Counted from the first letter of the stretch, positions 19,610-23,815 are shown. The stretch: DNA of 64,000 nt from Corallococcus soli (GCF_014930455.1 NZ_JAAIYO010000008.1:96367-160366); one strand, 5' to 3'. Numbers and translations: made by a program. The notes: generated by a model from the sequence alone, not told the origin.

Positions 19610-21406
19610 ATGACTCAGCCGACGATCATCGACCGATTCCATGCGCTCGCGTCCGCCCACCCGGGAGATCCGCTGTACACCTGGGTCGATGACGAGGGCC
19701 GAGACCGGGAGACGCTGTCTTTCGGCGATACCCTCGCGCTCGCCGAGGTTGTGGCCGCGCAACTAACGGAAAAGCACGGGTTGCGGGCGGGGGACCGCGT
19801 GCTGTTGGTCTATCCCCCCTCCCTGGACTTTGTCGTGACGTTCCTCGGCTGCTTGCTCGCCGGCCTGGTCCCCGCGCCAGTCTACCCGCCGAACCCCCTG
19901 GGCCTCGAACACGACTTGGGAACCTTCGCGGCCATCGCGACGGATTGCCGGGCCTCGGCCGTCCTGACCAACGCTTCGTATGCCCGGATGCGCCAGCTCG
20001 GGGCTGTTAAACGCCTCTTCACCCGCAACACTGCACGCTGGCCGGACGTGCCCTGGCACACGGTAGCCGCGACCCGAGGTACCGCCGCGGCTCCCACCCA
20101 CGTCGCATGCCCGGCCGACGTGGCGTTCCTGCAATACACCTCCGGGTCCACCTCCACGCCCAAGGGGGTCATGATCACCCACACCAACATCGTGGCGGAG
20201 GCGGAGGCGAACGCACGCGACCTGGGCCTGCGGCGATCCGTCCGGTGCGTCTTCTGGGTGCCTCAGTACCACGACTTCGGACTGATCAGCGGCATCCTGA
20301 GCGCGCTCGCGGGCAACGGCCACCTGTACATGATGAGTCCCATGGCCTTCGTCCGCCGGCCGTCGGTCTGGCTCGAGGTGATGAGCCGCGTTCGCGCGAC
20401 CCACTCGGCGACGCCCAACTTCGGGCTTGAGCTGGCCGTGCGCAAGACCACGCCGACCGAACGGGCACGCTGGGACCTGAGCGCGCTGGAGGCGATCGTC
20501 TGCGCGGCGGAGCCGGTCCGCGCCGCGACCCTGGATGCGTTCAACGCCGCCTTCGGGCCGGCGGGGCTCTCGCCGACCGTCGTCCGGCCGTCGTACGGTC
20601 TCGCCGAGCATACCGTGTCCGTCACGGTCGGCCGCAGCCTGCGGCTCGAGGTCGATCGCGCATCGCTGGAGGCCGGCCGGGCCGTCCCACGTCGCGAAGG
20701 CGCGCCCTCCATGACGCTCGTGGGCTGCGGGCACGTCACCAAGCCGAATGCGGTGGTGCGCATCGTCTCGCCTGACACCGGCCGCCCCTGCGCGGACGGC
20801 GAAGTTGGCGAAATCTGGGTCGACTCCCCTACCAAGGCGGCGGGCTATTTCGGCCGAGAAGAGGCCACGCGCGAGTTCTTCGGGGCCCGCGTCGATGACC
20901 CGGCGGACGACCGGACCTACTTGCGCACCGGCGACCTGGGCTTCTTCTGGGACGGCGAACTCGTGCCGACCGGACGCTGTAAGGACCTGATCATCATCCG
21001 TGGACGCAACTACTACCCGCAAGACGTGGAAGATGACCTGCGAGCCGCACACCCATCCATCCGTCCGGGCGGGGTCGCGGCGTTCGCCCGGCCGAACCCC
21101 TACGGCGAGGAAGAACTGGTCGTCGTCGTCGAAGTGGCCGAAGAGCGAAGCGGGCGGGCGATCGCCGGCGAGGTGGCGACCGCGGTCAGGCGTCTCATCC
21201 AGGCCAGCTTGCAGGTGTCGTGCGCCGTGGTCGTGGTGGGTGCCAAGGGCACCGTGCCGAAGACGACCAGCGGCAAGGTGCGGCGTCAGGCCTGCCGCGA
21301 GTCGCTCTCCGACGGCAGCCTGGAATCGGCCGCGACGACGTTTCTCGTGAGTCGCGTGCCGAGCGGGGCCGAGGTGATCGTACCGGCCGCCTCGCCAGGG
21401 CCGTAA
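19610..21406 (+). CDS. Fatty acyl-AMP ligase (FAAL-type adenylation enzyme)
   Basis: Start MTQPTIIDRF... AMP-binding core YTSGSTSTPKGVMITH. FAAL-like architecture (FadD32/FAAL family). Confidence 0.85.
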   Translation: MTQPTIIDRFHALASAHPGDPLYTWVDDEGRDRETLSFGDTLALAEVVAAQLTEKHGLRAGDRVLLVYPPSLDFVVTFLGCLLAGLVPAPVYPPNPLGLEHDLGTFAAIATDCRASAVLTNASYARMRQLGAVKRLFTRNTARWPDVPWHTVAATRGTAAAPTHVACPADVAFLQYTSGSTSTPKGVMITHTNIVAEAEANARDLGLRRSVRCVFWVPQYHDFGLISGILSALAGNGHLYMMSPMAFVRRPSVWLEVMSRVRATHSATPNFGLELAVRKTTPTERARWDLSALEAIVCAAEPVRAATLDAFNAAFGPAGLSPTVVRPSYGLAEHTVSVTVGRSLRLEVDRASLEAGRAVPRREGAPSMTLVGCGHVTKPNAVVRIVSPDTGRPCADGEVGEIWVDSPTKAAGYFGREEATREFFGARVDDPADDRTYLRTGDLGFFWDGELVPTGRCKDLIIIRGRNYYPQDVEDDLRAAHPSIRPGGVAAFARPNPYGEEELVVVVEVAEERSGRAIAGEVATAVRRLIQASLQVSCAVVVVGAKGTVPKTTSGKVRRQACRESLSDGSLESAATTFLVSRVPSGAEVIVPAASPGP

Positions 21407-21430
21407 CCGGGGCCCGATGGGGCCTACACC

Positions 21431-23815
21431 TCATGCCTCGACGGGAGCGGACTCCGGCGCCAGGTCCGGCGCGGGTGCGCCCGTGAGGACATGAGACAGC
21501 CAGTCGGCCGCGCGGCCGACGTCGTCCGGCCAGCCGGGGTAGATGTGCAAGTCCGAATGGCGCGCCACCAGACGCGCGCGCCCATCGAGGCGCGCGGCGA
21601 ACGCCTCGCTCGCATCGAAAGGGGAGATAGGGTCGCCGACCGCATGGAAGATCAGGAGCGGCGGGCAGGTCTCGGGCCGCACCTGCTCAAGCGGCGACAG
21701 CGCCGCCAGGCGAGCCGTACGCTCGGTCGGCTCGGAGCCGCCCAAGGAATGAAGCAACGTACGAACTTCGTCGTTGGGCGCGTTTTCGTGCAGCAAGACG
21801 CCAGGGCACAGCCCGACGGCCGCCGCCACGGTGGGCTCGAATCGCCCGCCCAGGAACTCCATATCCGGCGCCGCGTCCGGGGCCGTCACGGCGGCGAGCA
21901 ACGCGAGGTGACCCCCCGAGGAGCAGCCCAACATGGCGACGCGATCGGGATCGATGGCATGGCGCGTCGCGCGGCTCTTCACCCAGCGCACGGCCCGCCG
22001 AAGGTGGAGCAACTGGGCATGGCCGTCGAAGTGCGGCACGGAGCCCGGCCGGGCGGCGAACACCGTGAACCCGGCGCCGCAAAGCCGCTCGTACACGCCT
22101 TGCGCGAGGTGGTCATGCAGCACGTCGGGGCCGGAGTGCCAGCGCGCGCTGACGACGTCGACGACGGCCAGCCCGTTGGCGGCCTCCCGTGGCTCGAAGA
22201 CGTCCATCAAGATGCCGGCGCCGCCGCTCTCCGTGAAGACCAGGCTCGCCGAATGCGTGAAGGCGGGGGAGTCCGGCCTCTCCGACACCGGCGAGGTCAC
22301 GGATTCCAGACCTTCGAGGAACGACGCGAGCGCCTCGAGCGTGGGGTGTTCCAGGAACGCCGTCGGCGGCACCGGTTCACCCGTGTGCGCGGCGATGCGG
22401 TCCAACAGATCGACGGCCCGGATGGAATCGAAGCCCATTTCCGTGAACGCCGCCGAGGCGGCGGGCGGCGCGGCCAGTTCCAGCACCTCTTGGACGGTGG
22501 TTTGCAGCCAGCTCAGCACGGTCGACGGAGGCGAGGCGGCGGCGGTTTCGCTCACGGTCGCCACGCCGAAGTGCCGCTCGATGGTGGCCTGCGCATACGC
22601 GACGTTGCACTCCATCATCTCGAAGTTGTGAAGGCTGCCGAGGAAGACCGTCCCATGTCGGCCCTGCAGCGCCTCCAGCCGCTCGTACAGGCCGGCCGCG
22701 GTGTCCTCGGTCGAAAAGTGCGGGCAGTATTCCCAGCGACGTTGCAGGTGAACCGATTCCAACGTCCCACCGAGCGCCTCGACGTCCTCCATGAGGAGGC
22801 GCTGAATCGCCGCGCCGTCCGTCTGCGCGTCGCCGTAGGCGAAAAAAACAACGACATCACTGTCAGGATAGCGGTGGTGATAGGAGACGGTGTGCCCGAC
22901 CGCGCCGGGGTCATCCGTGAACCGCCGGAGCAAGTAGAGGCCGTCTCGCTGCAAGCCCCGCGCGGTGGCGATGGTGGTGTAGTAGTCGAGGGTTCGGACG
23001 CGGCCGAACACCGCCTGCTCCTCTGGGGTCAGGTCCAGGAACGTCGAAATGGCGCCCGTCTCCGTCGCCACCACCAGGCGGTCGAAGGTCAGCCAACCCG
23101 TGTCGATCTCGATCCGGATGCGCGCGCCGCTCCGGTCGACTCGCCGAACGGGGGTCGAAAGCCGGACGTCCGGCAGTTCCGCCGCCACGGCCTCCCAAAG
23201 CCGGGCGAGTCCGCCGGGGATCGTCCATGAGGGGGGCAGGGCGCTCAGGGGCCCGGCGCCCACGAGGCTCTCGGCGAACTTGGCGAACAGCACGGCCGGG
23301 AGGTCCGGCGAGCCGACGTAGCCGTATCCGGTCGCGGTGTACGCCACACGGGCCGCCGCGTCGGGCCCGGCCACCCCCGTCGTGTCGAGCCACTCGGCGG
23401 CAGGCGAGCCGAGCCCGCCCGCGACCCGGGCCAGGCCGGGGGAGGCGATCGCCGGAAAGGCCGTGTCTCGGAGCGCCCGGAAGGCGCTCGCATTCGCCCA
23501 GAACTCCACGCTGTCGCTCGACGCCGTGACTCGCCCGTTGGCTTCCAGCACGCGGAAGGGGGTCATCCGAACCATTTCCAGGCCGAGTTCCGCCACCAGC
23601 CGACCGACCTGGCGGTAGTTCGAGGAGCACCCGTGCCCACCGAGATCGAACCACTGGCCGTCGACCTCAACCGAGGCGCTCTTGCCACCGAGCCTGGGCG
23701 AGCGTTCGAAAACAGTCACGTGGTGGCCGGCCCGCGTGAGCGCGCGCGCGGCCGTCAGGCCGGATACCCCAGCCCCGATCACGCAGACGGACAAGCTGGG
23801 TGAATGCGTTCTCAT
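21431..23815 (-). CDS. Tri-domain protein: FAD-dependent amine/protoporphyrinogen-oxidase-like oxidoreductase, then acyl/peptidyl carrier domain, then alpha/beta-hydrolase (esterase/thioesterase-like)
   Basis: N-terminal Rossmann VCVIGAGVSGLTAARAL. Mid GFDSIRAV carrier Ser motif. C-terminal GCSSGGHLAL nucleophile elbow. Start at Met14 (GAGGA RBS). Confidence 0.8.
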   Translation of the reverse strand: MRTHSPSLSVCVIGAGVSGLTAARALTRAGHHVTVFERSPRLGGKSASVEVDGQWFDLGGHGCSSNYRQVGRLVAELGLEMVRMTPFRVLEANGRVTASSDSVEFWANASAFRALRDTAFPAIASPGLARVAGGLGSPAAEWLDTTGVAGPDAAARVAYTATGYGYVGSPDLPAVLFAKFAESLVGAGPLSALPPSWTIPGGLARLWEAVAAELPDVRLSTPVRRVDRSGARIRIEIDTGWLTFDRLVVATETGAISTFLDLTPEEQAVFGRVRTLDYYTTIATARGLQRDGLYLLRRFTDDPGAVGHTVSYHHRYPDSDVVVFFAYGDAQTDGAAIQRLLMEDVEALGGTLESVHLQRRWEYCPHFSTEDTAAGLYERLEALQGRHGTVFLGSLHNFEMMECNVAYAQATIERHFGVATVSETAAASPPSTVLSWLQTTVQEVLELAAPPAASAAFTEMGFDSIRAVDLLDRIAAHTGEPVPPTAFLEHPTLEALASFLEGLESVTSPVSERPDSPAFTHSASLVFTESGGAGILMDVFEPREAANGLAVVDVVSARWHSGPDVLHDHLAQGVYERLCGAGFTVFAARPGSVPHFDGHAQLLHLRRAVRWVKSRATRHAIDPDRVAMLGCSSGGHLALLAAVTAPDAAPDMEFLGGRFEPTVAAAVGLCPGVLLHENAPNDEVRTLLHSLGGSEPTERTARLAALSPLEQVRPETCPPLLIFHAVGDPISPFDASEAFAARLDGRARLVARHSDLHIYPGWPDDVGRAADWLSHVLTGAPAPDLAPESAPVEA

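Follow-up and report, generated by a model that had tools for sequence, protein, structure and literature searches.

In the biosynthesis of polyynes, the enzyme fatty acyl-AMP ligase (FAAL) acts together with a dedicated acyl carrier protein (ACP), desaturases and a thioesterase (TE) (Kim, Ishida and Hertweck 2022, PMC9828172), and plant proteins that include such a ligase have been listed as 'HemY-FAAL-catalase' fusions whose function was stated to be unknown (Patil et al. 2021, eLife, PMC8460268). Two further points of comparison are the fatty-acid double-bond isomerase PAI, the polyunsaturated fatty acid isomerase of P. acnes (PDB 2b9w), and the coral fusion of a catalase-related allene oxide synthase (cAOS) with a lipoxygenase (PDB 1u5u, 3dy5). 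Here we describe a pair of genes found in a sequence of 64,000 nt from Corallococcus soli (GCF_014930455.1, NZ_JAAIYO010000008.1:96367-160366), called the window below, with all coordinates counted from its first letter. One gene encodes a FAAL, and the other a tri-domain protein in which a PAI-like flavoprotein, a carrier domain and a Ser-Asp-His alpha/beta hydrolase follow one another. We propose, with moderate confidence, that the two genes form a carrier-tethered fatty-acid tailoring cassette independent of polyketide synthases and nonribosomal peptide synthetases (PKS/NRPS), a reading in which we infer the substrate, the exact chemistry of the flavin step and the part played by the hydrolase in release.

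The features of the locus are collected in Table 1. The two genes are convergent, with 24 bp between their stop codons, and an AGGA ribosome-binding site lies 7 nt 5' of the ATG of the tri-domain gene (position 23815). The tri-domain protein is 100% identical to the NCBI entry 'FAD-dependent oxidoreductase [Corallococcus sp. ZKHCc1 1396]'. The outer coordinates of the locus, its two open reading frames (ORFs), their convergent layout and the presence of three domains had been proposed from the sequence beforehand, and were all recovered, the domains by Pfam. No ketosynthase (KS), condensation (C) or adenylation (A) domain of PKS/NRPS type was found in the window ORFs that were scanned, as the original prediction had also stated.

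Table 1. Genes and domains of the FAAL/tri-domain locus and adjoining features (window coordinates).
Feature	Position	Strand	Description
FAAL gene	19610..21406	+	598 aa, intact ORF
Tri-domain gene	21431..23815	-	PAI-like flavoprotein / carrier / Ser-Asp-His alpha/beta hydrolase; 794 aa plus stop
Flavin domain	22565..23815	-	residues 1-417 of the tri-domain protein
Carrier (PP-binding) domain	22307..22519	-	residues 433-503
BD-FAE / HSL-type alpha/beta hydrolase domain	21476..22210	-	residues 536-780
IS5-family transposase fragment	24039..24491	+	Pfam DDE_Tnp_1; match to NCBIfam transpos_IS5_3 limited to profile positions 122-192 of 258
MDR-family quinone-oxidoreductase / enoyl-reductase-like gene	17954..18928	+	Pfam ADH_N / ADH_zinc_N

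The N-terminal domain had been described as an amine/protoporphyrinogen-oxidase-like flavoprotein, an assignment that had to be revised. Pfam places Amino_oxidase on residues 17-392 (3e-29); however, the best solved relative in sequence is PAI (E 1e-24), and the alignment runs over the full length (query residues 9-414 to residues 8-421 of the 2b9w chain, with an identity of about 21-27%), whereas the amine oxidase match reaches 1e-15 over a partial length. The residues shared with PAI are GxGxxG at 14-19, E37, HHRY at 313-316, and W361 followed by PHF at 365-367, which corresponds to the motif W..(F/C)PH. In the FAD-binding Rossmann motif, G14-x-G16-x-x-G19, E37 and G44 are invariant in the relatives aligned. 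An AlphaFold model of the tri-domain protein built on ten homologues was confident for the flavin and carrier domains (pLDDT of the flavin domain mostly 80-97), and the top Foldseek match of the flavin model was again PAI (E 1.5e-31, TM 0.87, rmsd 2.8 Å). Other matches were CpaO (TM 0.76), protoporphyrinogen oxidase (0.71) and monoamine oxidases (about 0.65), none of those listed being above 0.76. Taken together, the alignments and the predicted structure indicate that the flavin domain is specifically PAI-like and that its likeness to amine and protoporphyrinogen oxidases is at the level of the superfamily only. More specifically, it resembles a flavoenzyme by which the double bonds of fatty acids are moved.

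The product of the neighbouring gene is predicted to be a fatty acyl-AMP ligase. Pfam detects AMP-binding (6.6e-63) as well as AMP-dom_DIP2-like, the latter above its cutoff, and FAAL is also the name given to the protein by NCBI. In NCBIfam, FAAL families account for all of the top models (1e-114 to 1e-87; PRK05850, 8e-114), every match lying under the curated cutoffs, whereas the models of fatty acyl-CoA ligases (FACLs) score 1e-43 or weaker, except for PRK07768 at 1e-82, again below the curated cutoffs. All 15 of the 15 PDB matches below 1e-40 are FAALs. The core motifs A3, A5, A7, A8 and A10 of ANL adenylation enzymes are all present (TSGSTSTPKG, YGLAE, GEIWV, RTGD and PKTTSGK), and YGLAE and GEIW are spaced by 66 residues. 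This spacing is some 20 residues above that of E. coli FadD, which would be consistent with the FAAL-specific insertion that blocks the use of CoA. That the acyl group of the acyl-AMP would be passed to a holo-carrier rather than to CoA receives indirect support from the conserved adjacency or fusion of the ligase to a carrier domain (see below). The enzyme shares 51-53% identity with the FAALs whose genes are directly upstream of homologous flavin-carrier genes; this identity by itself was rejected as a sign of co-evolution with the flavin protein, because many unrelated FAALs are equally similar. A total of 1637 FAALs score below 1e-100 against it, and the closest one, from Archangium (70% identical), is carried by a contig that ends before the neighbouring gene.

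We then looked at the carrier and hydrolase domains. Pfam PP-binding covers residues 436-500 (3.4e-14; 53 bits, the cutoff being 20.8), and the motif GFDSIRAV is found at residues 461-468, with S464 (codon 22424-22426) as the predicted phosphopantetheine-attachment site. This serine is invariant in six relatives and stands at the N-terminus of predicted helix II (464-478) in a confidently modelled four-helix carrier domain. The attachment motif of the original prediction is supported. The hydrolase begins about 30 residues past the carrier domain. Pfam BD-FAE / Abhydrolase_3 matches residues 537-744 (1.8e-19) and the GCSSGG elbow is located at residues 630-635; its predicted triad consists of S632 (21920-21922), D728 (21632-21634) and H757 (21545-21547), three residues that are invariant across 11 BD-FAE sequences. 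The elbow noticed earlier is borne out. In Pfam, the hydrolase matches these families and not Thioesterase PF00975, the TE family of PKS/NRPS systems. Its relatives in the PDB include the esterases 6nkf and 5ao9. By identity, this domain is closest to the BD-FAE domain of protein P0207 (40.8%), followed by that of L010, a locus from a deltaproteobacterial metagenome-assembled genome (38%). Since these two are the most identical, the order flavin domain-carrier-BD-FAE was inherited within the family. The closest free-standing BD-FAE esterases are not beside related cassettes and have planctomycete-like contexts.

The original prediction regarded the combination of flavin domain, carrier and hydrolase as an architecture not recognised from characterised pathways. 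An exhaustive HMMER search over 1.84 billion cluster representatives, with domains mapped by local BLAST on the best 150, returned 244 relatives of the tri-domain protein at E<1e-30 (counted as cluster representatives). The architecture is therefore not unique, and its plant members appear to have been noted already, as indicated below. In about 30 of the best 150 relatives, the FAAL and the flavin domain (Ox) are part of a single polypeptide. Thus P0203 reads FAAL-Ox-ACP-TE, P0200 and P0201 read FAAL-cAOS-Ox-ACP-TE-Z, the P0201 cluster including an Archangium protein, and P0207 reads FAAL-cAOS-Ox-ACP-BDFAE-TE-Z, where Z is a conserved domain of about 520 aa. The flavin-carrier didomain of the window is 45-49% identical to those of P0200-P0202 and P0002, and in a neighbour-joining tree the window flavin domain nests among the FAAL-fused proteins.

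Gene neighbourhoods gave a similar picture. A word-indexed search returned seven relatives with a flavin-carrier fusion; at six of the seven loci a FAAL gene is immediately upstream and co-directional, and the seventh lies within a pfa-type polyunsaturated fatty acid (PUFA) synthase cluster. In addition, a genome scan limited to one genome per species returned 80 loci. Multi-domain cassettes made up 33 of these, mainly from Streptomyces, Lentzea and Saccharopolyspora (including S. spinosa), and the FAAL gene was directly upstream in 30 of the 33. The remaining 47 loci correspond to a standalone Streptomyces offshoot of the flavin domain, 44-46% identical, which is found in a LacI-regulated operon beside PhyH dioxygenase, short-chain dehydrogenase (SDR) and Gfo/Idh/MocA oxidoreductase genes (e.g. 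L039 6814-11290 of Streptomyces canus, and 46 similar loci). The pairing of FAAL with the flavin-carrier protein is not due to chance, the two being fused or adjacent in dozens of independent genomes. The earlier proposal that the FAAL loads the carrier of the tri-domain protein gains support from this adjacency (30/33 loci) and from the ~30 single-polypeptide fusions.

Most relatives have domains that the window protein lacks. A cAOS-like domain of about 350 aa, barely detected by Pfam, precedes the flavin domain in most of them; in the genome scan it is present in 18 of the 33 cassettes, and members devoid of it also exist. It matches the coral enzyme 1u5u with an E of 2.7e-33, as well as 3e4w, a catalase-related protein from M. 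avium. Both the distal His and the proximal Arg..Tyr of the coral enzyme are kept (P0002, residues 38-41 and about 318-324; also P0005, P0007 and P0008), and Thr66, the catalase-suppressing residue, is changed to Phe, Leu or Ala. Because of this replacement, the domain and coral AOS may not react alike with H2O2. A PF00975 TE accompanies 30 of the 33 cassettes and a P450, sometimes fused, 19 of the 33; in the actinomycete relatives this TE is at the position that BD-FAE occupies in the window. Other downstream partners are a SnoaL-like protein, a PfaD-like enoyl reductase (ER) with PKS genes, and domain Z (P0200 1716-2272, P0207 1983-2485, P0202 603-1100, L010 4319-4483), for which neither Pfam nor the PDB gave a sequence match.

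Two contexts were informative as to the family's substrates and its spread. At two loci, L019 269-13901 (Actinoallomurus iriomotensis) and the metagenome locus of P0005, a cAOS-Ox-ACP protein is encoded inside a pfa-type PUFA-synthase cluster that also holds a KS-CLF-FabAx2 protein, a PfaD-like ER and an acyltransferase (AT) protein, and PfaD-like reductases adjoin the flavin-carrier gene at two further loci. Such contexts point to polyunsaturated acyl chains, the substrate class of PAI. In plants, homologues that read Ox-FAAL-...-cAOS over about 2300 aa were found in Selaginella (P0263, EFJ28539.1) and Eucalyptus (the P0281 cluster, XP_039159797.1 and others), annotated merely as 'Carrier domain-containing protein', and these fit the plant fusions listed by Patil et al. 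By homology, then, the cassette belongs to a large uncharacterised family that extends over actinomycetes, myxobacteria and plants; no characterisation of this family was found in the openly licensed literature, where absence is not proof. The window cassette is a reduced member of it, the fuller form being FAAL - catalase-related haem domain - flavin - carrier - BD-FAE and/or TE - P450 or domain Z. Altogether, we regard as established at the level of sequence the identities of the domains, the intactness of the catalytic and attachment residues, the relationship to PAI and the evolutionary coupling of FAAL and flavin-carrier protein, and on the same grounds the FAAL and the flavin-carrier-hydrolase protein appear to form a functional unit.

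How the cassette may work can be outlined as follows. The FAAL would adenylate a long-chain fatty acid, probably (poly)unsaturated and probably scavenged as the free acid, and would move the acyl group onto the phosphopantetheine arm at S464. The flavin domain would then act in cis on the system of double bonds that the tethered chain carries, with FAD taking an allylic or bis-allylic hydride. Should the hydride be returned, a conjugated diene would result and the enzyme would be an isomerase; should the flavin be re-oxidised by O2, the outcome would be a net desaturation. We give isomerase rather than oxidase chemistry about half of the confidence that we place in the general scheme. Finally, the Ser-Asp-His hydrolase would free the product, and its function as an off-loading thioesterase is plausible, but not secure. 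Extended to the whole family, this scheme leads to a tentative view, to which we attach low confidence, of a carrier-based, lipoxygenase-independent route, common to actinomycetes, myxobacteria and land plants, by which fatty acids would be turned into oxidised or conjugated signals or metabolites. There, the PAI-like flavoenzyme would activate a tethered (poly)unsaturated chain at its allylic position, an AOS-like or H2O2-using haem domain, a P450, a SnoaL-like protein or domain Z would then elaborate the chain, and the Corallococcus pair would be the minimal, haem-free form making a conjugated or desaturated fatty acid.

The surroundings of the two genes bear on their history. The window is a high-GC myxobacterial sequence with genes of the DUF2381 family, numerous Ser/Thr kinases and a che cluster, and the cassette lies in a compositional island (11251-25584) where the mean GC content at third codon positions (GC3) is 0.83, compared with 0.94 in the flanking genes. 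Besides the cassette, this island contains two Ser/Thr kinases, a DUF2381 gene, several family-less ORFs and the IS5 fragment. The latter, a truncated transposase of an insertion sequence (IS), adjoins the tri-domain gene at its 5' end and may have been left by the rearrangement through which the pair became convergent. Neither a cAOS-like domain nor a remnant of it was detected by tblastn, be it upstream of the tri-domain gene or elsewhere in the window, ORF 24643-25584 was rejected as a cAOS remnant since its sequence is unrelated, and domain Z was not found in the window either. On the other side, a gene of the medium-chain dehydrogenase/reductase (MDR) family is located 680 bp upstream of the FAAL gene on the same strand (NCBIfam PIG3 family, 1e-41; crotonyl-CoA reductase, 3e-30). 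It was rejected as a conserved member of the cassette, a homologue being beside no related locus examined, and may be a local accessory.

Elsewhere in the window, the che cluster (27859-36568; CheA-CheW, CheB, CheR) includes a globin-coupled chemoreceptor with Bac_globin, PAS and MCPsignal domains (31741-33789, minus strand). A Fic-domain ORF (26117-27106, minus strand) and a diacylglycerol-kinase-like ORF (26949-27869, plus strand), as called mechanically, overlap at their 5' ends by about 158 bp, and the start codon of one of the two probably lies further downstream.

Several observations weigh against a functional tailoring cassette as we have outlined it, and some of them feed other explanations. 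The proposed substrate and chemistry rest on a low identity to PAI (about 21-27%), in a family with no characterised member. PAI acts on free acids, not on thioesters. Arg88 of PAI, which in the 2006 structure paper is reported to anchor the substrate carboxylate at the channel mouth, is not clearly conserved: HMMER places it opposite an F, and an Arg one position later is not conserved in the 17-sequence alignment. With a thioester substrate, loss of the anchor would be expected. The standalone Streptomyces offshoot nests inside the cassette clade in the neighbour-joining tree and its operon has no lipid signature, meaning that chemistry within the clade is not uniform. No phosphopantetheinyl transferase (PPTase) gene was found in the window. 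If the flavin domain were instead a true O2-dependent oxidase of a heteroatom substrate, for instance turning an amino-acyl or amino-fatty-acyl thioester into an imine or keto product, this would agree with the Pfam family (Amino_oxidase), with monoamine and putrescine oxidases as the next-best structural matches and with the catalase-related domain of most relatives, which would fit an H2O2 producer. We nevertheless consider such an activity improbable: PAI is far closer both in structure (TM 0.87 against 0.65) and in sequence, the loader is a FAAL instead of an enzyme that adenylates amino acids, neither the window nor the conserved cassettes hold an aminotransferase or a source of amines, and the PUFA-synthase contexts point to hydrocarbon chains. 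As for the hydrolase, the part of the structure model that covers it is unreliable (pLDDT below 40). P0207 carries a separate canonical TE after its BD-FAE domain, so that BD-FAE may not be the releasing enzyme. It could rather be an upstream lipase or esterase that frees the fatty acid from an ester lipid for the FAAL, or an acyltransferase that hands the product to some acceptor, release being left to another enzyme; its nearest relatives outside the family are free-standing secreted-type esterases and its PDB neighbours are lipases and carbohydrate esterases. However, it is the sole hydrolase detected after the carrier in the window, L010 and P0224, and it holds the place of the TE of the actinomycete branch, which makes these other roles fairly unlikely.

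The departure of the window copy from its relatives raises the question of whether the cassette works at all. The copy is devoid of the haem (cAOS) domain, TE, P450 and domain Z, whereas its nearest relatives in the tree (P0200-P0203 and P0207) are FAAL-fused and, all but P0203, have a cAOS domain. It is the only convergent pair in about 40 loci examined, and it is surrounded by the low-GC3 island and flanked by the IS5 fragment. When clustered at 90% identity, each of the two proteins is the sole member of its cluster, the window copy is known from one strain only, and no homologue was found in any Corallococcus or Myxococcus species representative in the one-genome-per-species scan. This pattern fits a horizontal acquisition followed by an IS-associated rearrangement. 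The pair could be the decaying or rearranged remnant of a more extensive FAAL-cAOS-Ox-ACP-BDFAE-TE-Z system that IS activity inverted and truncated after its acquisition; it would then no longer make the normal product of the family and may be non-functional. Yet both genes are intact and full length, every catalytic, cofactor and attachment motif is kept, and the tri-domain gene is preceded by a good ribosome-binding site. Moreover, relatives lacking the cAOS domain are apparently complete systems (P0203; Lentzea cassettes with FAAL + Ox-ACP-TE(-P450)), and convergent orientation is compatible with co-function. We therefore judge decay to be unlikely, though less so than the alternatives considered for the flavin and hydrolase domains, and retain a working carrier-tethered tailoring cassette as the preferred explanation.

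It remains to compare this cassette with the systems mentioned at the outset. With the coral cAOS-lipoxygenase, most relatives share a cAOS homologue fused to a fatty-acid-modifying partner; the partner is, however, a flavoprotein with a carrier, Thr66 is replaced as described, and the window protein is devoid of the domain altogether. The plant 'HemY-FAAL-catalase' fusions (PMC8460268) have the same set of flavin, FAAL, carrier and catalase-related domains, but in the plant order and as single eukaryotic chains, whereas the window version is split over two genes and has no haem domain. The recurrence of this unit with an AOS-like haem domain suggests that soil bacteria and plants make a class of products from fatty acids, possibly similar to oxylipins, that has gone unrecognised. 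The window version, with its two genes and three tailoring or handling domains, would be the simplest system in which to begin an in vitro reconstitution of the core chemistry. PAI resembles the flavin domain as an FAD flavoprotein of amine-oxidase fold, by full-length homology, as the best structural match, by the HHRY and W..FPH motifs and by the fatty-acid context; unlike the window domain, which is fused to carrier and hydrolase and would be fed by a FAAL, PAI is a free-standing enzyme of 424 aa that acts on free linoleic acid. No description of a carrier-fused PAI-like flavoenzyme as a tailoring step was found in the openly licensed literature. The succession of FAAL, carrier, tailoring and release is in itself an established logic of thiotemplated fatty-acid tailoring systems, and the polyyne cassettes are an example: there too a FAAL loads a dedicated carrier, the tethered chain is modified and a hydrolase releases it, without PKS/NRPS extension. 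The window cassette differs from them in its tailoring enzyme, a predicted soluble PAI-like flavoprotein fused to the carrier and not a membrane di-iron desaturase, and in its putative releasing domain, which is of the BD-FAE type instead of a classical TE.

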